Source: an uncultured Verrucomicrobiota bacterium
Lineage (GTDB): Bacteria > Verrucomicrobiota > Verrucomicrobiia > JABWAM01
Reading direction: 5' to 3'
Length of the DNA: 64,000 bases
NCBI GenBank assembly: GCA_964653025.1
Contig: CAZZBZ010000004.1
Location: 4,173-68,172, forward strand
Numbering within the stretch: the first letter of the stretch is position 1; each line of letters begins with the position of its first letter. The notes beneath the pieces are model-generated. The model did no database searches and was not told the origin of the DNA. It was given only the letters and a program-made list of their open reading frames with translations. This document shows, in pieces, positions 2,673-46,718 of this stretch. Position numbers and translations under genes: made by a program.

Positions 2673-4369
2673 AAGGTGAAGAAAAAGGTAGCGCCTTGCT
2701 CGACCGCTCCCTCGGCCCATGCCCGACCGCCGTGACGGTGGACGATGCGCTGGACGTTGGCGAGCCCGATCCCGGTCCCCTCGAACTCTCGCGTGGCATG
2801 GAGTCGCTGGAAGGGAGCGAAGAGTTTGTCCGCATAGGTCATATCGAACCCTGCCCCATCGTCGCGGACGAAGAAAACAGGGGGCGAACCGACCCCGTCC
2901 CCGCCTCCGGGAGGCCGAACGCCGAACTCGATCCTCGCCTTCGGGTGGCGCGCGGTGAACTTCCATGCGTTGCCGAGAAGGTTCTCAAGGAGGATCCGGG
3001 CAAGGCCCGGGTCGGCGCGTGCCACCAAGCCGGGGGTAATCCTCCACTCGACGACGCGTGCGGCCTCCCCGTGCCCAAGCTCCTCCGCCACCTCCCGCGC
3101 AAGGACGCTCAGGTCCACGCGGCCGAGGTGCATCTCCATGCGGCTCACACGGGAGAGCTTGAGCAGATCATCAATGAGCAGGCCCATTCGCTGGCTGGCG
3201 GCGCGGATGCGGCCGAGATGCTCGCGGGCGGTCGTGTCCAGTTGTCCCGCGCAGTCCTCCAGAAGCACCTTGCTGAACCCATCGATCCCCCGGAGCGGGG
3301 TGCGCAGGTCGTGGGAGACCGAGTAGGCGAAGGTCTCGAGTTCCTTGTTCGCGGCCGCGAGCTGGGCGGTCCGTTCTGTGACGCGTCGCTCGAGCTCCAC
3401 GTTGAGCGTAAGGATCATCTTCCCCGCCTGCCGTTTCCACCAGAGCACGAGCGAGAGGCCGATGATCACCACCAACCCCGAGGTCGCCAGGAATGCCCAT
3501 GCGGTCTCCATTCGGAGCGGGGCGAAGATTTCCTCCGCGTCCACCTTGGCGACCAGGAACCAGGGACTCCCGGGAACCCGTCGGATCGCCGCCAGCACCG
3601 GAAATCCCCGATAATCCTCCCCCTCCACGATCCCTTCCTCGCCGCGGATCGCCATCGCCGCCGGGAGTTGGGGGTCGTTGACAGGGAGACGGAGGGTCAG
3701 CGCCGTTCCCTTCCGGTGACGGAGTTCGTTGAGGTAAAGGACGTCCTTCCCCTCCTGGCGAATCAGCAGGGTTTCCGCGGTCCGACTCGGGACCGGCCAG
3801 CCCTGGATCAGCGGATAGAGGAAGCGCTGCGGGTCGACCCGGCACACGAGCGCCCCGGCACCTTGAAGCGGTACGTAGAGGTTGAGGTGCGGCACGGGAA
3901 TCTCGCGGGAAGAATGAAACTCCGAGAGGGCGACTTCCCCCTTGCGTAATACCCGAATCGCCTCGGCCGAGGCTTCGGCGGGCAGCTGCATCCCATCCAG
4001 CCCGGTGGCCAGCCTCGGGCGTCCCGAGGCATCCAGCAACAGCACTGCACGGTAGTCATAGCGCGAGGCCATGGCCCCCAACCAATGGCGGATCGGCTTT
4101 TCCAGGACGGGCGACGGAGAACGCAGATAACGGGCGATGGCCTCAACCTCCAGCGGGGTCCGCGCGGCGACAAGGCCGTCCTCCATCCGTTCCCGTCGCC
4201 ACTCGACGATCTGGTTAATTTTGAGTTCTGCGATTGCGGCGAGTTGAACGGCGGCCTCGTTCTGTAAGATACGGCACTGGTTGCGATGGTATCCATAGCC
4301 CGTGGCGAGGACGAGCGCGGCCAACACGAGGAAGACCGCCGCGGGAACGGCCCGGCTGGGTCGGGCCAT
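2657..4369 (-). CDS. Sensor histidine kinase with periplasmic sensing domain (2 TM, HisKA, HATPase_c)
   Basis: ORF 2657..4522. The start is placed at MARPSRAVPAAVFLVLAALVLA (TM1). Includes SVSHDLRTPL (H-box), DDGAGFD and GTGIGLANV boxes. Confidence 0.8.
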   Translation of the reverse strand: MARPSRAVPAAVFLVLAALVLATGYGYHRNQCRILQNEAAVQLAAIAELKINQIVEWRRERMEDGLVAARTPLEVEAIARYLRSPSPVLEKPIRHWLGAMASRYDYRAVLLLDASGRPRLATGLDGMQLPAEASAEAIRVLRKGEVALSEFHSSREIPVPHLNLYVPLQGAGALVCRVDPQRFLYPLIQGWPVPSRTAETLLIRQEGKDVLYLNELRHRKGTALTLRLPVNDPQLPAAMAIRGEEGIVEGEDYRGFPVLAAIRRVPGSPWFLVAKVDAEEIFAPLRMETAWAFLATSGLVVIIGLSLVLWWKRQAGKMILTLNVELERRVTERTAQLAAANKELETFAYSVSHDLRTPLRGIDGFSKVLLEDCAGQLDTTAREHLGRIRAASQRMGLLIDDLLKLSRVSRMEMHLGRVDLSVLAREVAEELGHGEAARVVEWRITPGLVARADPGLARILLENLLGNAWKFTARHPKARIEFGVRPPGGGDGVGSPPVFFVRDDGAGFDMTYADKLFAPFQRLHATREFEGTGIGLANVQRIVHRHGGRAWAEGAVEQGATFFFTLSNEP

Positions 4370-4545
4370 AGTCTCCCTCAGAGGCGGCGACGCCCCGGTC
4401 GACCGGGCAGCACCTAAGTCTTCGGATCGGCTCATGTTCTCCGGACGGAAACGGGAAGACGCTCCGCCAATAATCCCTCCACGAATCAGGGTTACCGTAA
4501 GGCGAAGACCCCGTCCATGCAATAATCAAGAGGCTGCGATTCGAC

Positions 4546-8186: not shown

Positions 8187-8485
8187 GTTCCAATGTTCAA
8201 AAGGAGACATTCCTGATCATCGGGGAGCATACGCGACTCGCGTGTCCAAACTCGGCGGCCCGCCGATTTTTCTCTTCTCGGATTCCGTTTGGCGAGCCGC
8301 CAAACGGGACACGCCAGCGGCGTGTGCTCCCCGATCCATTCCCCACCTTTGTAGGAGCCGCTGCCAGCGGCGACCCGAAATGGGGGGCCTGCCGACTGCA
8401 TGGTGCGAACCCTCGTGGCGTGGCGCATCCCAATTTCCTTTCGCCTCTGGCAGCGACTCCTACAGCCCCGACCGACTGAGATCCA

Positions 8486-9664
8486 ATGTCTGCTCTTCAA
8501 TCAGAAATCAGAAATCAGAAATCGCCAATCTGGCAGCGCTTTAGCGCCGCCAGATTTGTTGCGATCCTCGTCAAGGAGTTCATCCAGATGCGGCGGGACC
8601 GCCTCACCTTCGGGATGATGGTCGGGATCCCGGTGCTTCAACTCGTCCTCTTCGGCTTCGCGATCAACTCCGATCCCAAGCACCTGCCCACCGCCGTCCT
8701 CGTCGCCGACCCGGGCCCGTTCGCGCGGACACTCGTCGAGGCGATGAGCAACAGCGCCTACTTCGAGATCGTTCGCTCCCCCGCCTCCGAGCGCGAGGCG
8801 ACCGCGCTCCTCCGCTCGGGACGCGTCCAGTTCGTGCTCACGATCCCCGAAGACTTCACCCGCCGCCTCGTGCGCGGGGAACGCCCCGCGGTGGTCCTCG
8901 AGGCCGACGCCACCGACCCGGCCGCCACGAGCAACGCCCTCGCCGCGCTCGACACCCTCGCGCGCGAGTCCCTCGACCGTGACCTGAAGGGCCCCCTCGC
9001 CGACCTGCGCGCCACGCCGGGCCCCATCGAACTCCGCATCCACCGCAAGTACAACGAGGAGGGGATCACCGCCTACAACATCGTCCCCGGCCTCATGGGC
9101 GTCGTGCTCACGATGACGCTCGTGATGGCCACCTCCCTCGCGATCACGCGCGAGCGCGAGCGCGGCACGATGGAGAACCTGCTCTCCACCCCCGCTCGCC
9201 CGCTCGAGGTGATGCTCGGCAAGCTCATCCCCTACATCCTCGTCGGCTACATCCAGGTGGCGCTGATCCTTCTCGCGGCGCGCTTCGTCTTCGGGGTGCC
9301 CATCATGGGCAATCCCTTTTGGCTGGCGCTCTTCGCCCTCGCCTTCATCGTGGCGAACCTCATGGTCGGGATCACCTTCTCGACGCTCGCCCGCAACATG
9401 CTCCAGGCGATGCAGATGTCGTTCTTCTTCTTCCTGCCCTCGCTCCTCCTCTCGGGGTTCATGTTCCCCTTCCGCGGCATGCCCGGGTGGGCCCAGGCCA
9501 TCGGCAACCTCCTCCCCCTCACCCACTTCAACCGGATCGTCCGCGGCATCCTCCTCAAGGGCTACGGCCCGCTCGACGCCCTCCCCCACCTCTGGCCGAT
9601 CACGCTCTTCCTCCTCGTCGTCATGGTGATCGGCCTGAAACGCTACCGCCGAACGCTGGATTGA
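8486..9664 (+). CDS. ABC-2 family transporter permease
   Basis: Six TM helices, ABC-2 membrane protein pattern (RFVAILVKEFIQMRRDR..). It lies 300 bp downstream of the ATPase gene. Confidence 0.8.
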   Translation: MSALQSEIRNQKSPIWQRFSAARFVAILVKEFIQMRRDRLTFGMMVGIPVLQLVLFGFAINSDPKHLPTAVLVADPGPFARTLVEAMSNSAYFEIVRSPASEREATALLRSGRVQFVLTIPEDFTRRLVRGERPAVVLEADATDPAATSNALAALDTLARESLDRDLKGPLADLRATPGPIELRIHRKYNEEGITAYNIVPGLMGVVLTMTLVMATSLAITRERERGTMENLLSTPARPLEVMLGKLIPYILVGYIQVALILLAARFVFGVPIMGNPFWLALFALAFIVANLMVGITFSTLARNMLQAMQMSFFFFLPSLLLSGFMFPFRGMPGWAQAIGNLLPLTHFNRIVRGILLKGYGPLDALPHLWPITLFLLVVMVIGLKRYRRTLD

Positions 9665-36855: not shown

Positions 36856-36971
36856 TTACCCGGACAGAAAATGCGAGAGGAATGGACGCCGCCGGGGGCG
36901 GCCGCTAGTGTGGTGTCCACGAAATACTTGCCGTTACAGAACTCGCACATCCCGAGAAGATTGCTCTAAAT

Positions 36972-37040
36972 GATGGAGGGGCACGCTTCGTCGTGCCCTC
37001 TGTGAGGACCGATGGCCACGACGAAGCGTGGCCCTCCATC
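36972..37040. repeat. Long inverted repeat (about 25/27-bp stem, 16-nt loop)
   Basis: gatggaggggcacgcttcgtcgtgcc .. ggccacgacgaagcgtggccctccatc. Confidence 0.6.
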
Positions 37041-37101
37041 AAAAGAAATAATGGCAGATACTTCAAGGACAGCAGACTAGACTCCGCTCCAAGGAAAACG
37101 G

Positions 37102-38121
37102 ATGGCCAGGACCCGCGCAACCCGAAAACCCGGACGCGGCGAGACACTCGCCGCATGGAGCGTCCTCCTCGTCCTCGCCGTTATCGCCGCCGGGGTGGGC
37201 TGGTGCCAGTCCCACTTCAACCCTGCGATACACGCGATGGCCTTCGCCACCTCCGACACCGGCCTCGCAAAGGCGCGCACCGCCGCCCCACTCGATCTTC
37301 TCGAAAAATGGCCCGCAGGAATGAAACCCCTCGGCCCCGCCGAGCGCTTCGATGCCGTCACACTTTCCGATAAGATCGACGGCAAGGCCGAACTCTACTT
37401 CTCCGCCGGGTTCAAGGAACTCCGCTGTCAGCGCGTGGGCACTGCGGGCGGGGCCTCCGAGTGGATGGAGATCGAGGCCTTCGACATGGGCGAGCCTGCC
37501 AACGCCTTCTCCGTCTACAGCGTCCAGCGCCGCAAGACCGCGACCGACGCCGGGATCGGCGACCACTCCTACTTCGCGGGCAATGCCCTCTGCTTCGTTC
37601 ACGGACCGTTCTATGTGGAGGTCATCGCCACCGACGCACAACCCGCGCTCATGAAATCCGTCGCCGCAGCGGGACGGCGCTTCATCGAGGAGCACCCGGT
37701 CGCGCGAAAGGTGAACGTCGCCGACGACAAGGCCCTCTTTCCGAAGGAGGCGATCGTCCCCAACAGCTTCTCGCTCCTCGCAAGCGATGTCTTCGGCTTC
37801 GACCGCCTCGATCGCGTCTTTCTCTGCCGCGTGAAGGAGGGGAAGCAGGAGATCGCCCTCTTCGCCTCGCGCCGAGGTTCTCCCGCAGAGGCCGAAAAAC
37901 TCGCGGTGGACTACCGCGCCTTCCTCATCAAGGACTGCGGAGGCAAGGACGCGGGGACCGTCCCTCCGGTGCCCGGTTCCTCGATGATTTCCCTCGACGG
38001 GATGTTCGAGGGGGTGTTCTCCTCCGGATCCGTGATGGCAGGCATTCATCAGGCCCCAAGCCGCGAGGCCGTGCTTCGCTGGGCGGAGCGCCTCGCCCGC
38101 AGCATCGAGGGGAAGAAATGA
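37102..38121 (+). CDS. Hypothetical membrane-anchored protein (N-terminal signal anchor), no recognised domain
   Basis: MARTRATRKPGRGETLAAWSVLLVLAVIAAGVGW..; consistent coding composition; 339 aa. Confidence 0.6.
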   Translation: MARTRATRKPGRGETLAAWSVLLVLAVIAAGVGWCQSHFNPAIHAMAFATSDTGLAKARTAAPLDLLEKWPAGMKPLGPAERFDAVTLSDKIDGKAELYFSAGFKELRCQRVGTAGGASEWMEIEAFDMGEPANAFSVYSVQRRKTATDAGIGDHSYFAGNALCFVHGPFYVEVIATDAQPALMKSVAAAGRRFIEEHPVARKVNVADDKALFPKEAIVPNSFSLLASDVFGFDRLDRVFLCRVKEGKQEIALFASRRGSPAEAEKLAVDYRAFLIKDCGGKDAGTVPPVPGSSMISLDGMFEGVFSSGSVMAGIHQAPSREAVLRWAERLARSIEGKK

Positions 38122-38295
38122 TGCAGTTATCCAGGTTCACGGTTAAGGGGTTCAACGGTTCAACGGTTGGAAAGAGTATATGGAACGAGCATTTTGACGG
38201 TTTCGAGGCGTGGCAATTGAAGCGAGAACTGACTTGCAGTGTGAAATCAACCGCTGAACCGTGAACCGCGGAACCCAACAACCCGTCCGACCAGT

Positions 38296-39303
38296 ATGAG
38301 CCACCCCGAACCCCATCCCCACCACGGCCACCCCGCCTCACGGCGGGAGTTTATCCGCCGCAGCGCACGGCTTGCGGCCGCGATCGCCGCCACCGGCACC
38401 GTCGGCGGATGGCTCTGGAACCGGCACCCGCCCGGTGATTTCTCAAAGGCTTCCGCCCCCCCGCCCCTCCCCGATTTCTCCGTGCGCGATGGCGGCCCTG
38501 CGATGAGCATTGTCACCGGCGGGGAGCGTGCGACGGCCCTCCAGCGCGGCCTCGCCGCACTCGGCGGGATCGAGCGCTTCGTGAAACGCGGCGATCGCGT
38601 CCTTCTCAAGGTGAACGCCGCGTTCGCCACGCCGGCGGCCCTTGGAGCGACGACCCACCCCGACCTCGCCGCCGAACTCATCCGCCTCTGCCTCAAGTCC
38701 GGGGCCGCCTCGGTGATCGTCACCGACAACCCGATTAACTCCCCCGAGAGCTGCTTCGCCCTCTCGGGCCTCGGGGAGGCGACGGCCCGCGCCGGAGGGC
38801 GCCTGGTCGTCCCGCGCGAAACCGATTTCCTCCCCGCGACCGTCCCCGGCGCGCGTCTTCTCCGCGACTGGCCGGTCCTGCGGCGCCCGTTCGAGGGGGT
38901 GAACAAGCTGATCGGGGTCGCCCCCGTGAAGTCGCACAACCGCGCGGGGGCCTCGATGACGATGAAAAACTGGTACGGCCTCCTCGGGGGACGGCGAAAC
39001 CAGTTTCACCAGGACATCCACGGAATCGTCTCGGAACTGTCCGCACTCGTCCGTCCGACCTTCGTGGTCCTCGACGGCACGGCAAGCATGATGTCGAACG
39101 GGCCCACGGGCGGCTCCCTCGACGACCTCAAGGCCACGCGCACGATGGTGGTGAGCACCGACATGGTCGCCGCGGACGCCTTCGGGATCTCGCTGCTCGA
39201 CCGGTCGCCCGCCGACCTGCCCTACCTCCGCATGGCAGCCGAACGCGGCGCCGGCCGCCTCGACTACGAGGCCCTCAAGCCCATCCGTCTCTCTCTTTCC
39301 TAA
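38296..39303 (+). CDS. DUF362-domain protein with twin-arginine (Tat) signal peptide
   Basis: SRREFIRRSARLAAAIAATG (Tat motif); DUF362-like core (..KVNAAF.., ..VVLDGTASM.., ..MVVSTDMVAADA..). Confidence 0.8.
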   Translation: MSHPEPHPHHGHPASRREFIRRSARLAAAIAATGTVGGWLWNRHPPGDFSKASAPPPLPDFSVRDGGPAMSIVTGGERATALQRGLAALGGIERFVKRGDRVLLKVNAAFATPAALGATTHPDLAAELIRLCLKSGAASVIVTDNPINSPESCFALSGLGEATARAGGRLVVPRETDFLPATVPGARLLRDWPVLRRPFEGVNKLIGVAPVKSHNRAGASMTMKNWYGLLGGRRNQFHQDIHGIVSELSALVRPTFVVLDGTASMMSNGPTGGSLDDLKATRTMVVSTDMVAADAFGISLLDRSPADLPYLRMAAERGAGRLDYEALKPIRLSLS

Positions 39304-39340
39304 GCCCATGATTTTCTCCTCCATCCACGCGAACAACGAG

Positions 39341-39466
39341 GCCGCTCATCGGAGCCTCGATTCTGATCGGGGCGATGAGCGGCTCCATGCCCTGCATTCC
39401 GTTTTCGTGTGTTTCGTGTACTTCGTGGTAATCCTTCTGAATCCGTGTCCATCCGTGGCTTCCCCC
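39341..39466 (+). repeat. Structured repeat, copy A (divergent): 11-bp-stem hairpin + CGTG heptamer direct repeats + CATCCGTGGCTTC terminus, ending 9 nt before the polyferredoxin ATG
   Basis: gccgctcatcg-21nt-cgatgagcggc ..ttcgtgtgtttcgtgtacttcgtgg.. ctgaatccgtgtccatccgtggcttcc. Confidence 0.6.
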
Positions 39467-39474
39467 TCCTCACC

Positions 39475-41424
39475 ATGAAGATCCTCACGGCCCGCCGGAT
39501 CGCCCAGGTGTTCTTCCTCGCGCTCTTCACGTGGCTCTGCGTCGTCGCCACGGTCGGCACCGCCCCGTGGCAGTGGCGCGGATGGCCGATCAACGCCTTC
39601 CTCCAGTTCGACCCACTCGTGGCCGTCGGCACCGCCCTCAGCACCCATTCCCTTTACGCCGGGCTCGCCTGGGCACTCGTCACGGTCGCGGTGACGATGC
39701 TTCTCGGGCGCGTCTTCTGCGGTTGGGTCTGCCCCTTCGGCACGCTCCACCAAATCCTTGGCTGGCTGGGCCGACGGCGCTCTCGCCCGAAGGAAAAGGT
39801 GGAGGTAAACGAGTTCCACCCGGCGCAGCGTTTCAAGTACTACCTCCTCTTCGCGATGCTCGCGGCGGCTTCGGGAAACCTCGCGGTCAATCTCCTCCGC
39901 TCCACGCGTGAACAGCCTACCTGGGCGGTCGCGGCGATCGCCGCCGGATGTGCCATCGCCCTTTTCCTCGGTTTGCGGCGGTTCGTCTCAGGCCCCTCCA
40001 CCGCGGCCGCGCTCACCGTGCTCCTTGTCGGGGCCGGCGCGCTCGTCACCGGTCGCATTTCCACGGACCGCGCGATCGTCGCCTCACTCCAGACCGGACT
40101 GCTCGACCCGATCCCCCTGCTCCACCGCTCCTTCACGGTCGTGGTCCTGCCGCTCGCCGACTCGGCCTTCGGGCGAATCTGGAGCGCCCCCCGCCATTAC
40201 GAAGGGGCATGGTTCATCGGCGCTCTTTTCGCCGCCTTCCTCGCGCTCAACCTCTGGATCCCGCGCTTCTACTGCCGCTTCCTCTGCCCGCTCGGCGCGC
40301 TCCTCGGCGTCTTCGCGCGCACCACCCTCTGGTCGGTCGGGATCAAGGAGGCCCTCTGCACCGACTGCGCCTCCTGCGACCGCAACTGCGAGGGGGCCTG
40401 CACCCCGACCGGCCCGCTCCGCGTCAGCGAGTGCCTCATGTGCATGAATTGCCTCGAGGACTGCCCCACCTCGAAGCCGATCCACTACCATCCGCGCCCA
40501 TCGAGCAGCGGCGAGGAAACGGGCCACGGGGTCACCCGCCGCGGCTTTCTCATCTCGGTCGCGAGCGGCCTCGCCGCCACGCCCGCGCTCCGCCTTGGGG
40601 GACTCGTTGGCCCGACCTGGTCCGCCCAACTCGTCCGCCCTCCGGGCGCCGTCGATGAGGAGGAGTTCCTCGCGCGCTGCATCAAATGCGACCAGTGCCT
40701 CCGCGTCTGCCCCACCAATGTCCTCCAGCCCGCCGGCCTCTGGGCGGGGATCGAGGCGTTCTGGACCCCGTTCCTCAACAACCGCATCGGGACGAGCGGC
40801 TGCCAGGTCAATTGCATCGCCTGCGGAAACGCCTGCCCCACGGGCGCGATTCGCCCGCTCACCCTCGATGAAAAGCAAGGGAAGGGCGACTTCGCGGGGC
40901 GCGGACCCGTCCGCCTCGGCACCGCTTTCGTGGACCAGGGGCGCTGCCTCCCATGGGCCATGAACCGCCCTTGCATCGTCTGCGAGGAGAACTGCCCCAC
41001 CACGCCGAAGGCGATCTGGGTGGACACCACCTTCCGCGCGGTGCGCGACGGGACCCTTGCGATCGCCGCCGTCGAGGGCGACACCTTCCGCTTTGCAACC
41101 GGGGGACACGCCCTCCCCCCGGGCCGCTACGCGAGCGGGGACCACTTCTGCCTCGCCGAGGGGGACCCTGCCCCCCGGAGGATCGTCGCGAACACCGCGG
41201 ACACGGTGACGTTCGCCCCCGCTCCCGGCGGGAAGAAACCCCCGGCACCCGGCACCCGCGTGGAGATCCAGGTGCGCCTCCAGCGCCCCGTGGTGGAAGC
41301 CGAGCGCTGCATCGGCTGCGGAATCTGCGAGCACGAATGCCCCGTGAGCGGCCTCCGCGCCATCCGCATCACCGCCGAGGGCGAGACCCGCAGCGCCTCC
41401 CGCTCCCTCCTCGCCGGGCGCTGA
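39475..41424 (+). CDS. Membrane-bound polyferredoxin, NapH/MauN/RnfB-like 4Fe-4S binding protein
   Basis: TM segments with FCGWVCPFGTL and FYCRFLCPLGAL motifs plus multiple CxxCxxCxxxCP ferredoxin motifs (CIKCDQCLRVCP, CIACGNACP, CIVCEENCP, CIGCGICEHECP). Confidence 0.8.
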   Translation: MKILTARRIAQVFFLALFTWLCVVATVGTAPWQWRGWPINAFLQFDPLVAVGTALSTHSLYAGLAWALVTVAVTMLLGRVFCGWVCPFGTLHQILGWLGRRRSRPKEKVEVNEFHPAQRFKYYLLFAMLAAASGNLAVNLLRSTREQPTWAVAAIAAGCAIALFLGLRRFVSGPSTAAALTVLLVGAGALVTGRISTDRAIVASLQTGLLDPIPLLHRSFTVVVLPLADSAFGRIWSAPRHYEGAWFIGALFAAFLALNLWIPRFYCRFLCPLGALLGVFARTTLWSVGIKEALCTDCASCDRNCEGACTPTGPLRVSECLMCMNCLEDCPTSKPIHYHPRPSSSGEETGHGVTRRGFLISVASGLAATPALRLGGLVGPTWSAQLVRPPGAVDEEEFLARCIKCDQCLRVCPTNVLQPAGLWAGIEAFWTPFLNNRIGTSGCQVNCIACGNACPTGAIRPLTLDEKQGKGDFAGRGPVRLGTAFVDQGRCLPWAMNRPCIVCEENCPTTPKAIWVDTTFRAVRDGTLAIAAVEGDTFRFATGGHALPPGRYASGDHFCLAEGDPAPRRIVANTADTVTFAPAPGGKKPPAPGTRVEIQVRLQRPVVEAERCIGCGICEHECPVSGLRAIRITAEGETRSASRSLLAGR

Positions 41425-41431
41425 CCGCTTA

Positions 41432-41507
41432 CCCGAATCAGAAGCCACGGATGAAACACGGATTAGACACGGATAGCGCCAATCCCGCCACAACGGGATT
41501 GGCGCAC
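41432..41507 (-). repeat. Structured repeat, copy B (reverse orientation)
   Basis: The reverse complement reads ggtgcgccaatccc-gttgtggc-gggattggcgc tatccgtgtctaatccgtgtttcatccgtggcttctgattcgg. Confidence 0.75.
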
Positions 41508-41861
41508 CACGCAACTACCCACGAGATCATCGGGGCCGCGTTCGAAGTTCATCGCGAACTTGGCCACGGGTTCCTTGAGCGCGTCTATCAGCGCGCCCTC
41601 CTTATCGAACTCCAAAAGCGCGGAGTCCCTGCTGAATGCGAGCACAAGCTGTCGGTTTGCTACAAAGGTACCGTGGTGGGCGAGTATCAGGCCGACCTTG
41701 TTGTCGCGGGCAAGGTGATCGTCGAGTTAAAGGTCGCCCACGAGTACAACCCCTCCGACGAAGCTCAACTGTTGAACGAGTTGAAGGCGACCGGCATGAA
41801 GGTCGGAATCCTCCTCAACTTTGGCCGCGCAAAAGTCGAGTTCAAGAGAATGGTGCTGTGA
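41451..41861 (+). CDS. GxxExxY family protein (TIGR04256-like; PD-(D/E)xK-related small protein)
   Basis: THEIIGAAFEVHRELGHGFLERVYQRAL (GxxExxY motif) ..YQADLVV..IVELKV... The tracked ATG lies inside repeat copy B, so the true start may be downstream. Confidence 0.75.
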   Translation: MKHGLDTDSANPATTGLAHHATTHEIIGAAFEVHRELGHGFLERVYQRALLIELQKRGVPAECEHKLSVCYKGTVVGEYQADLVVAGKVIVELKVAHEYNPSDEAQLLNELKATGMKVGILLNFGRAKVEFKRMVL

Positions 41862-41906
41862 TCCATGGACCCTGATCGCTTCGGAGCGGTTTCTCCGTGC
41901 AATGGA

Positions 41907-41980
41907 GTGCGGCGATTCCGTGTAGCGGAATCGCCGCGTCTTCCTCCGATCCGTGTCCATCCGTGGCTTCTGATTCTGCC
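41907..41980 (+). repeat. Structured repeat, copy C (forward)
   Basis: gcggcgattcc-gtgtagc-ggaatcgccgc gtcttcctccg atccgtgtccatccgtggcttctgattctgcc. Confidence 0.75.
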
Positions 41981-42119
41981 TCTGAACTCCCCTTGCCAAA
42001 TCAACCCCTTCGCGGTCCGCTTTGCCTTTTTCGGATGGACACGCGCACACCGCCGGGCGGATATAGGGACGGTCTTCGCGAATCCCAAATCACGTTTTTA
42101 AAAAACAGGAGCACTCCCT

Positions 42120-43358
42120 ATGAAAAGCCATAAGAAATCCATGACGCGTCGTGACTTCTTCCGGGCCGCCGGCGTGGCGGGCCTCGGAACCGTGCTCCTT
42201 CCCCGCATGGCGTGGGGACAAGATCCCGCGCCGGCCACGGGGGCCACCCCTGCCGCCGCGGGCACTGCCGCGGTCGTCGCCGCGGCCATGTTGCGCCGCA
42301 AGTTTGGCAAAACCGGCGTCGAGGTTCCGATCCTCTCGATGGGCGGGATGTACGACATCCCGAACAACCAGCACATGCTCCGCCAAGCCATCGACCTCGG
42401 CGTCACCTACTGGGACACCGCCGCGGGCTACAGCAACGGCCAGAGCGAGGTTGGCATCGGGATGTTCTTTGAGAAGAACCCCGACGAGCGAAAAAACATC
42501 TTCCTCGTATCGAAGGCCTCGGGCGGCCCGACCCCGGACGCGATGACACGCCTCCTCAACCAGTCGCTCGAGCGGATGAAGACCGACCACGTGGACCTCT
42601 ACTTCATGCACGGGATGAGCGGTATCGCCCAGGTGGACAAGCCGGAGATCAAGGCGTGGGCCGAGAACGCGAAGAAGGAGGGCAAGATCAAGCTCTTCGG
42701 CTTCAGCACCCACAGCAACATGGAGCAATGTCTCATGGGCGCCTCCAAGCTCGGTTGGATCGACGGGATGATGATCACCTACAGCTACCGCAATATGAAC
42801 ACGCCGGAGATGAAGGCCGCGATCGACGCCGGCATCGCCGCCGGCATCGGCCTCACCGCGATGAAAACCCAGGGCAAGGGCCCCGCGGACGATTCCGCGC
42901 TCGGCACGTTCACCCAGAAGGGTTTCACCCCGGGCCAGGCGAAGCTCAAGGCCGTTTGGGAGAATCCGCAGATCTCCGCGATCTGCTCGCAGATGCCGAA
43001 CGTGAAACTCCTCAAGGAGAACGCCGCCGCGGCGATGGACAAGACCCAGCTCGCCGGGGCCGACCGCGCCGCGCTCGCGCGCCACGCGGAGGACAACTGC
43101 GAGGGCTTCTGCGCGGGCTGCCGTCACCTCTGCGAGGGGGCAATCGCCGCCGCCGCGCCCGTGCAGGACGTGATGCGCTACCTCATGTATCACCGCCATT
43201 ACGGGATGCAGGGCGAGGCGCGCGCGATGTTCGCCTCCCTGCCCGCCGACGTGCGCGACCGCCTCGCAGCGCTCAACTACTCCGCCGCCGAGCGTGCGTG
43301 TCCCCATCACCTCCCCATCGCAAGCCTCATGCGCGAAGCCTCCGGCCTCCTCGCTTAA
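42120..43358 (+). CDS. Tat-exported aldo/keto reductase with a C-terminal Cys cluster (CX3CX2CX3C)
   Basis: MTRRDFFRAAGVAGLG (Tat); AKR core (GVTYWDTAAGYSNGQSE.., ..HVDLYFMHG..); C-terminal EDNCEGFCAGCRHLCEG. Confidence 0.85.
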   Translation: MKSHKKSMTRRDFFRAAGVAGLGTVLLPRMAWGQDPAPATGATPAAAGTAAVVAAAMLRRKFGKTGVEVPILSMGGMYDIPNNQHMLRQAIDLGVTYWDTAAGYSNGQSEVGIGMFFEKNPDERKNIFLVSKASGGPTPDAMTRLLNQSLERMKTDHVDLYFMHGMSGIAQVDKPEIKAWAENAKKEGKIKLFGFSTHSNMEQCLMGASKLGWIDGMMITYSYRNMNTPEMKAAIDAGIAAGIGLTAMKTQGKGPADDSALGTFTQKGFTPGQAKLKAVWENPQISAICSQMPNVKLLKENAAAAMDKTQLAGADRAALARHAEDNCEGFCAGCRHLCEGAIAAAAPVQDVMRYLMYHRHYGMQGEARAMFASLPADVRDRLAALNYSAAERACPHHLPIASLMREASGLLA

Positions 43359-46470: not shown

Positions 46471-46718
46471 GTGAGGCTGGAGGATGGAGGATTCATCGGG
46501 GAGCACACGCGGCCCGCGTGTTGAGGTGGGCGACCCGCCCGCCTCGTCCGAAGATCGATTCGGCGAGCCGCCGAATCGCGCACGCGAGCCGCGTGCACTC
46601 CCCAGAACGTCATCGAGTGCATCGGTGCTCCACCGATGGGTGGGGATGGTCTCGCTCTGGAGAAGCCGCTTGCGCGAGGATCAGGACTGCCCGACGCCCC
46701 CGTCGCCCGACTTTCCGC

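Follow-up and report, generated by a model that had tools for sequence, protein, structure and literature searches.

Repetitive extragenic palindromic (REP) sequences, their doublets (REPINs) and the genes of the REP-associated tyrosine transposases (RAYTs) form the closest described analogue of the repeat units considered here, which are built around a small gene of the GxxExxY family. GxxExxY genes, by the description of TIGR04256, form paralogous families within a genome and are not single-copy like the RAYT genes. Cyanobacteria reportedly carry short tandemly repeated repetitive (STRR) sequences, intergenic arrays of 7-nt units, and small dispersed repeats (SDRs), with small palindromic units nested in or adjacent to the arrays. 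REPs are abundant in Opitutus terrae (PMC3733652), and PF13366, the Pfam family of the GxxExxY proteins, is listed as being of unknown function (PMC3424549). The present analysis concerns copy A, a structured repeat lying directly upstream of a polyferredoxin gene in a 64,000-nt stretch of DNA (the window) from an uncultured Verrucomicrobiota bacterium (assembly GCA_964653025.1, contig CAZZBZ010000004.1, positions 4,173 to 68,172 of the forward strand). Copy A is probably what is left of a small selfish element of the REPIN or miniature inverted-repeat transposable element (MITE) kind, non-autonomous and reduced to one hairpin module and one terminal arm with no partner. Complete units of the family have an arm-gene-arm architecture, occur across phyla and have gene-less derivatives.

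Copy A occupies the entire 171-nt gap between the stop codon of a DUF362 gene (39303) and the polyferredoxin ATG (39475); CTTCGTGGT is a stretch within this native gap. An earlier note on this DNA had described here a structured repeat with an 11-bp hairpin, CGTG heptamers and a CATCCGTGGCTTC end, and all three components were confirmed in place. The hairpin module (39341..39383, + strand) is formed by a perfect 11-bp outer stem, GCCGCTCATCG (39341-39351) against CGATGAGCGGC (39373-39383; 100% complementary), around a 21-nt loop which, beyond a 3-nt bulge, contributes an inner 7-bp stem including one G-T pair. Folded as single-stranded DNA the hairpin reaches -18.9 kcal/mol (z = -3.9), a stability matched by none of 200 shuffles. 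Three (T/C)TTCGTG heptamers follow (39403..39427, +; starts at 39403, 39412 and 39421, 9 bp from start to start), and then the terminal arm (39431..39462, +), the outer end of the element, made up of a degenerate ATCCTTC at 39431, two ATCCGTG (39441 and 39451) at 10-bp spacing and a GGCTTC end. In order, the heptamers read TTTCGTG, TTTCGTG, CTTCGTG and twice ATCCGTG, with CGTG at 39406, 39415, 39424, 39444 and 39454. The CGTG heptamers of the earlier description therefore stand, but not their spacing of 10-11 bp, which was measured as 9, 9, 10+10 and 10 bp; similarly, the conserved end lies at 39462, 12 nt before the ATG (39475-39477) and not 9 nt.

The structure of copy A exceeds chance expectation. 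Perfect stems of 11 bp or longer, with loops of 3-30 nt, number eight in the window, against 0.95 +/- 1.0 in 100 dinucleotide shuffles, and five of the eight belong to the repeat family of copy A. Moreover, its five CGTG within 52 nt are the sole such cluster in the window, which holds the CATCCGTGGCTTC end (39450-39462 in copy A) in three exact occurrences and two with one mismatch. Between the end and the ATG stands a pyrimidine tail, CCCCCTCCTCAC(C) (39463..39474, +), without a Shine-Dalgarno-like purine run, and C-rich tails resembling it also follow GGCT(T)C in two loci outside the window, L011 and L027. At 4081-4420 of the latter, a Verrucomicrobiae genome, nine 41-bp arm units (CCCCCTCCCAATCCGTGTGAATCCGTGTTTCATCCGTGGCT) stand in tandem, with the C-rich tail resembling CCCCCTCC 3' of copy A.

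Copy A had been proposed to be a divergent member of a structured repeat family with a hairpin of its own, and this holds, given the shared module order and the terminal 22 nt, ATCCGTGTCCATCCGTGGCTTC (39441-39462), which are identical to copy C at 41949-41970. The family in the window is larger than the siblings B-D first named: besides copy A it counts four, B, C, D and E, with stems of 12-15 bp. The five related ends comprise the solo copy A; copies B (41441-41505, -) and C (41909-41970, +), inverted around a GxxExxY gene; and copies D (62391-62466, -) and E (62503-62572, +), inverted without a gene. The complete unit B-GxxExxY-C (41435..41976, +) has inverted ends GAATCAGAAGCCACGGATG...CATCCGTGGCTTCTGATTC, and the complementarity of B and C reaches outward to GAATCAGAAGCC...GGCTTCTGATTC (41435-41976). 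It consists of a left arm with three CACGGAT (41441-41474), hairpin B (41476-41505), the gene, hairpin C (41909-41937) and a right arm (41949-41970). The gene-less pair D-E spans 182 bp (62391..62572) with internal hairpins at 62432-62466 and 62503-62531, and is present with conserved flanks in another Verrucomicrobiota genome (L001). Hairpins B-E keep the loop TGTRG while their stem sequences differ; pairing is kept in 48 of 48 stem cells, and both sides have changed at 8 of 12 positions, a result reached by 0 of 500 shuffles.

Within this family copy A keeps the module order of hairpin, heptamers and end, and is distinguished by its own hairpin type, by the additional TTCGTG heptamers and by the missing partner arm. 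No GCCACGGAT-type inverted partner was found upstream of 39341, where the DUF362 stop is only 37 nt away, and as there is no inverted partner arm within ~600 bp, copy A is a solo end. It encloses no GxxExxY gene, the nearest being that inside the B-C unit (41451-41861). No further copy of its hairpin was found elsewhere in the window, and among the fetched loci the hairpin appears only in L037/L038, the closest relative found, and in those Logan contigs that belong to the window itself.

The terminal motif of copy A, ...ATCCGTG-N3/4-ATCCGTGGCT, matches the arm common to 56 GxxExxY units recognised outside the window. A metagenome scan by protein gave 80 loci coding for homologues with 54-68% identity to the GxxExxY protein of the window. 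Of these, the 67 with 150 nt or more on either side were analysed for inverted flanks against a cut-off at the 99th percentile of shuffles. The flanks form an inverted repeat above this cut-off in 59 of the 67 loci (AGCCACGGAT-ACACGGAT-ACACGGAT arms), with the consensus arm (TTT)AGCCAC(G/A)GAT-N3/4-ACAC(G/A)GAT-N3/4-ACAC(G/A)GAT. The 56 units with both ends recognisable measure 429-570 bp (median 461 bp). In compact units the ATG lies ~6 nt 3' of the left arm, and in many the right arm starts at, or a few nt from, the stop codon. The two arms of one unit are more alike than arms of different units (mean score 21.7 vs 16.2 over 39 representatives; 0 of 5000 permutations). Furthermore, the heptamers are conserved and the spacers variable, and the two arms within a unit are often imperfectly complementary. 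Together these features speak for recognition of the sequence, along with concerted change, rather than for a mere need of an RNA stem.

A search for exact matches to ATCCGTG-N3-CATCCGTGGCTTC, with each species represented by one genome, gave 36 loci sharing a 20-nt end, in Verrucomicrobiota, in Planctomycetota of several orders and in one genome of Saprospiraceae (Bacteroidota). Gene-less inverted pairs, GCCACGGAT...ATCCGTGGC at 60-270 bp from each other, account for 21 of them, and one (L008, Isosphaeraceae) encloses a GxxExxY gene; the remainder comprises solo arms, tandem arrays and loci at contig ends. At GxxExxY genes of lower identity (32-50%), which come from Bacteroidota, Spirochaetota, Gemmatimonadota and Alphaproteobacteria, short-repeat arrays likewise lie on the flanks, but are built of other unit sequences. 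In L030 and L131, arms of the TTCGTG type seen in copy A lie on either side of distant GxxExxY genes. Inverted arms are found on viral contigs (CCGGTTCAT, CGCAGAAA and CGGAATAAA), in Bacteroides finegoldii (CACAGAGGA) and in Bernardetia (CACAGAGA), and further repeat types occur at these genes in Prevotella (ACAAATCG), Gemmatirosa (CGCGGAT) and Sphingomonas (CGCGAAG), with a single ACACGGATTCG / CGAATCCGTGT pair in Treponema. The repeats are direct and not inverted in Fusobacteria and Persicobacter, so the inverted-arm rule is not absolute.

The GxxExxY gene was co-oriented with both neighbours in four of four plasmid records having both annotated. Its insertion sites include fabD|fabG in Sphingomonas and the space between radA and its neighbour in Bacteroides, and in L052 it starts 8 nt after the stop of a UvrD-like gene in the same orientation. 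The window shows the same arrangement, with polyferredoxin, GxxExxY and aldo/keto reductase genes co-oriented. Palindromic units of differing heptamer types (CACGGAT, CACGAAA, CAGGAA and CTTTGC) were seen nested or stacked in L036 (4989-5484), L030 (498-780), L071, L075, L081 and L097, which suggests that units already present, or sites next to them, are preferred places of insertion.

The GxxExxY gene of the window (41451..41861, +) belongs to the PDDEXK_3 nucleases (PF13366, E = 2e-39; TIGR04256, E = 4e-42). Its open reading frame encodes 122-136 aa and is open from an ATG at 41451 within the left arm, with an alternative TTG start at 41499 in hairpin B. Its D82...E92-x-K94 motif is intact, and these residues are invariant or nearly so among homologues. 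The AlphaFold2 model shows a generic PD-(D/E)XK nuclease fold with a mean predicted local distance difference test (pLDDT) score of 87, and residues 1-16, encoded by the arm, are disordered. Foldseek returned only generic PD-(D/E)XK neighbours (Cas4, lambda exonuclease and Hjc, TM-scores 0.45-0.5), hence no specific function could be transferred, and there were no matches in a PDB sequence search, PADLOC or PHROGs. About half of the 120 best GxxExxY protein matches start with MKHGLNTD, the translated arm. The disorder of the arm-encoded residues, together with the gene in L008 starting ~85 nt inside its arm, indicates that the arm is not a required coding part. The arm ATG as a general start of GxxExxY genes was rejected on the same two grounds and because only 9 of the 56 units can be read in frame, without a stop, from their outermost ATG.

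The operon context provided a further line of evidence. The order DUF6599-DUF362-polyferredoxin-aldo/keto reductase is the same in L037, L041 (Opitutaceae), L042 and L044. The DUF362 gene (38296..39303, +; PF04015, E = 1.7e-37) precedes copy A, and the NapH/NapG-like polyferredoxin gene (39475..41424, +; 649 aa) starts at ATG 39475 according to its orthologs. The junction between the DUF6599 and DUF362 genes, a 4-nt overlap in both L041 and L044, extends over 174 nt in the window and holds a GGTTCAAC-type palindromic unit (38125-38275). That between the DUF362 and polyferredoxin genes is 3 nt in L041, 2 nt in L044 and 171 nt in the window, the insert being copy A; that between the polyferredoxin and aldo/keto reductase genes is 24, 37 and 695 nt, respectively, the insert being the B-GxxExxY-C unit. 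Each of the three operon junctions in the window thus carries a repeat insert, and L042 has a different 24-bp palindrome in its DUF362-polyferredoxin junction. By comparison of these orthologous operons, copy A is shown to have been inserted in a junction only 2-3 nt wide in two relatives and to persist in two lineages.

The second lineage is that of L037/L038, whose polyferredoxin is 82% identical and which carries copy A at the orthologous site. In L037 the DUF362-polyferredoxin gap is 339 nt, with 47 nt from GGCTTC to the ATG compared with 12 nt in the window. The hairpin of the L037 copy is ~86% identical to that of the window, one C-G pair having become T-A by compensatory change and another pair being broken; agreement is 22/24 nt (92%) in the terminal arm and ~40-55% in the middle. 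The inner part of copy A, 5' of the hairpin (39304..39340, +), is alignable with the L037 copies, 24 of 31 aligned positions being identical. The L037 copy has a 25-nt insert 3' of the hairpin and an additional GACAGGAT-type palindrome upstream. Since the three flanking genes agree between the window and L037 at only 58-62% of their 4-fold degenerate sites, the hairpin and the end have been kept above the neutral level, consistent with either constraint or copying from sister copies. A second A-type hairpin with identical outer stems lies downstream of the polyferredoxin gene in L037, in a decayed unit with CACGAAG-like arms.

Taken together, these observations can be accommodated by the following model. 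A complete element spans about 430-570 bp and consists of inverted arms, each with two to three ACAC(G/A)GAT heptamers at 10-11 bp spacing and AGCC/GGCT ends, which enclose the ~125-aa GxxExxY PD-(D/E)XK gene so tightly as to leave no room for a promoter of its own. Gene-less inverted pairs and solo arms are its derivatives. The heptamer arrays, lying on one face of the helix, could serve as binding sites for the element's own nuclease, which may spread or maintain the arms either through copying by cut and repair or through a reaction akin to transposition that leaves the target unduplicated. Units would be expressed by read-through from host operons, and would for that reason insert between co-oriented genes and have to leave transcription unterminated. 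Copy A itself would be passively transcribed as an intercistronic leader and act as no designed switch, any effects on the polyferredoxin being by-products, namely the lost tight spacing to the DUF362 gene, a stable leader hairpin and possible masking of the AUG by the CUUCGUGGU heptamer.

Several points weigh against reading copy A as the remnant of a selfish element. Close relatives offer no clean empty site. Copy A lacks a partner arm, and its hairpin module was seen only in the lineage of the window and L037/L038, where it never adjoins a GxxExxY gene. The above-neutral conservation of this hairpin, together with that of the terminal arm, could be due to a function for the host instead of copying from sister units. 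Around the 56 complete units, no target-site duplication or flanking direct repeat was found. Many of the metagenomic units are orthologous copies with ~80% identical flanks and have therefore been vertically inherited for long, and a single near-identical unit (L051, 95-96% identical to others) lies in unrelated flanks. In addition, the nuclease activity of the GxxExxY protein and its binding to the arms are model predictions, and promoters of the Planctomycetes-Verrucomicrobia-Chlamydiae (PVC) group may deviate from the sigma-70 consensus that was scanned.

The alternative that survives best, although we consider it unlikely, is that copy A is a host-domesticated REP-like element acting independently of any nuclease, through protection of the upstream mRNA from 3' exonucleases, processing by RNase III or RNase E, or binding of nucleoid proteins or gyrase. 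The intercistronic position, a stable hairpin that no T-run follows, the lasting presence at orthologous sites and the compensatory changes in the hairpins all agree with such a role, as does the presence of classical GTAG-type REP doublets in the same window and the reported REP-richness of Opitutus terrae (PMC3733652). However, a purely host function leaves the tight, recurrent coupling of arms to GxxExxY genes (59/67 loci) unexplained, and the unit sequence of the arms varies between GxxExxY homologues of different lineages. Likewise, conserved heptamers, unconserved spacers and imperfect complementarity of the arms point to recognition of sequence and not to a long RNA stem. Domestication would in any case be compatible with the origin from a selfish element, the two not being exclusive.

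A weaker candidate, which we regard as quite improbable, is a dedicated cis-regulatory element of the polyferredoxin gene, either an outward promoter or operator, or a structured 5' leader in which the hairpin and the helix over the AUG adjust translation. Copy A fills the whole gap ahead of the ATG, is retained at its site in two lineages with conservation above neutral, and has CGTG repeats spaced roughly a helical turn apart, like those of certain operator arrays. The leader RNA is predicted to fold with -65.6 kcal/mol (z = -4.5 against shuffles), and the AUG to pair, with a probability >0.9, with the CUUCGUGGU heptamer (39421-39429), comparably in the L037 copy. GC-rich sequence, however, yields paired predictions easily. 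Pairing of CUUCGUGGU with ACCAUGAAG across the start codon is put forward only as a hypothesis. Against a dedicated role, the polyferredoxin does not need copy A, given that the orthologous operons of L041 and L044 lack the element in junctions of 2-3 nt; the distance from its end to the ATG differs (12 nt in the window, 47 nt in L037); and the arm is found in dozens of unrelated contexts and phyla, where its usual partner is a nuclease gene.

Searches for regulatory signals gave no match. No sigma-70 site (-35/-10 hexamers, 16-18 nt spacer) was found in 39200-39600 on either strand, although PVC promoters may deviate from this consensus. The scan for intrinsic terminators returned 0 sites, the hairpin of copy A being followed by TCCATGCCC with no T-run. 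Rfam 15 gave no match at gathering score anywhere in the window, none at E <= 1 in 38000-42300 and nothing in six related loci, and the tRNA scan found none. The suggestion of the earlier note that the element acts as a promoter, operator or 5'-UTR element survives in part: copy A is a family member and, if read through, physically an intercistronic leader. The dedicated role is not borne out, in view of the element-free orthologs, the variable distance to the ATG, the spread of the end over unrelated contexts of three phyla or more, and the lack of a sigma-70-like promoter, a terminator-like site or an Rfam match. An incidental effect of copy A on polyferredoxin expression, through the stable hairpin and the predicted pairing of the AUG, is possible.

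Finally, a coding role, as an N-terminal extension of the polyferredoxin from GTG 39445 or GTG 39409 or as a small peptide, can be dismissed as extremely improbable: although the frame is open from 39409 and a public gene call, P0001 (659 aa), places the start at GTG 39445, within the repeat, close polyferredoxin orthologs have 647-649 aa, the N-termini of the window, L037, L041, L042 and L044 all read MK(I)/MRI...ARR at the equivalent ATG, the upstream gene in L041 and L044 ends 2-3 nt before that ATG and leaves no space for an extension, and the extension would equal translated repeat. The public call P0001, longer by 10 codons, is probably overextended.

Several other features were noted in and around the operon. 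The unit at 38125-38275, between the DUF6599 and DUF362 genes, has a left arm GGTTCACGGTTAAGGGGTTCAACGGTTCAACGGTT, a right arm AACCGCTGAACCGTGAACCGCGGAACC and an interior of ~85 nt, and a single arm of its 8-mer type stands at 2586-2635 of the window. The equivalent junction of L037 holds a long CCGAACCT/CTGAACCT tandem array (1510-1615). The interior of the GGTTCAAC unit (38178-38261) was considered as a remnant of a 23S intervening-sequence (IVS) four-helix-bundle gene, for which Pfam gave no support. Upstream of the DUF6599 gene lies a 28-nt inverted repeat with 93% complementarity (36971-37041; TGATGGAGGGGCACGCTTCGTCGTGCCC / GGCCACGACGAAGCGTGGCCCTCCATCA), and a palindrome is therefore present just ahead of the operon as well as in its three internal junctions. 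The polyferredoxin start region (39472-39492, CCATGAAGATCCTCACGG; in the element-free L041, 2998-3020, CCATGAAAATCACCACGG) loosely resembles the left arm CCACGGATGAAACACGG, a likeness that might have attracted insertion or be coincidence. A non-coding block 5' of the aldo/keto reductase gene (CTTCGCGGTCCGCTTTGCC...TTTTCGGATGGACACGCGC...CCGCCGGGCGGATA) is conserved between the window (41990-42060) and L037 (5320-5390) and may be that gene's own promoter or leader.

Repeats of other kinds were present elsewhere in the window. At 8350-8460, inverted GTAG-tagged stem-loops (GTAGGAGCCGCTGCCAGCGGCGAC ... GCCTCTGGCAGCGACTCCTAC) resemble the GTAG REPs of Opitutus terrae (PMC3733652), and beside this pair AATCAGA stands three times in tandem (8499-8521). 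A twin-hairpin repeat, TTYGGCG-AGC-CGCCRAA followed by (A/G)CACGC(C/G)-AGC-(G/C)GCGTG(T/C), occurs at 8288-8332 and 46559-46603 with compensatory stem differences, and is a further REP-like family.

For annotation, the stretch 5' of the polyferredoxin gene should not be labelled a promoter or riboregulator but a repeat insertion which widens a tight junction. Gene callers mis-start the polyferredoxin inside the repeat, and repeat-derived N-termini (MKHGLNTD...) are common among GxxExxY proteins in the databases. More broadly, the analysis links an abundant family of unknown function (GxxExxY, PF13366/TIGR04256) to inverted arrays of phased heptamers and to their gene-less derivatives. The family thereby gains a testable function, action on its own arms, which would explain the MKHGLNTD N-termini, and many intergenic palindromes of Verrucomicrobiota, Planctomycetota and Bacteroidota gain a possible origin. 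We put forward, as a tentative proposal that we hold less likely than not, that GxxExxY proteins may be the nucleases of undescribed minimal selfish elements of ~460 bp, with lineage-specific heptamers, residing in operons, expressed by read-through and shedding gene-less pairs and solo arms; they would be a PD-(D/E)XK counterpart of REPIN-RAYT and would account for much of the repeat DNA between genes in PVC bacteria and Bacteroidota. Should the arms indeed be mobilised or copied by the nuclease, these would be among the smallest autonomous elements known.

Compared with known systems, the units share with integron cassettes promoterless open reading frames co-oriented with their neighbours, although by eye the arms contain no GTTRRRY core of an attC site. 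Unlike the ends of IS200/IS605 elements and palindrome-associated transposable elements (PATEs), complete units have terminal inverted repeats, and their sole gene encodes a PD-(D/E)XK protein, not TnpA (Y1) or TnpB. Arrays of 7-nt units in intergenic DNA, with small palindromic units in or beside them, resemble the STRR sequences and SDRs of cyanobacteria; to our knowledge no nuclease gene is tied to those repeats. Free-standing homing endonuclease genes, such as seg and mob of T-even phages, are alike in being small, promoter-poor nuclease genes between conserved co-oriented genes and in producing no target-site duplication, but they are not bracketed by inverted arms and leave no gene-less palindromic derivatives.

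The likeness to MITEs, such as the Correia/NEMIS (Neisseria miniature insertion sequence) elements of Neisseria and the enterobacterial repetitive intergenic consensus (ERIC) elements, lies in the gene-less inverted-repeat units of 60-270 bp (D-E and 21/36 loci), which are intergenic, co-transcribed and in principle able to alter downstream expression. The terminal inverted repeats and target-site duplication of a MITE were not both found, copy A being one-ended and none of the 56 units being duplicated at its borders. The units differ from MITEs, furthermore, in having no DDE transposase partner and in a putative autonomous form of only ~460 bp that encodes a PD-(D/E)XK protein.

REP/REPIN-RAYT comes closest. 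Both systems have dispersed, intergenic, structured repeats, mostly as inverted doublets with solo and clustered units as well, and both have a small nuclease-type gene flanked by inverted repeats, vertical persistence and lineage-specific repeats. Where RAYTs are HUH/Y1 tyrosine transposases, the gene here encodes a ~125-aa PD-(D/E)XK GxxExxY protein (PF13366), and in place of a single GTAG- or CGTC-tagged stem-loop there are heptamer arrays at 10-11 bp; the hairpin of copy A has no GTAG or CGTC tag, and hairpins B-E carry TGTRG in the loop. Literature searches found no description of the GxxExxY gene-plus-arms architecture and, as far as they reach, the GxxExxY unit is an undescribed variant of the repeat-plus-nuclease theme.

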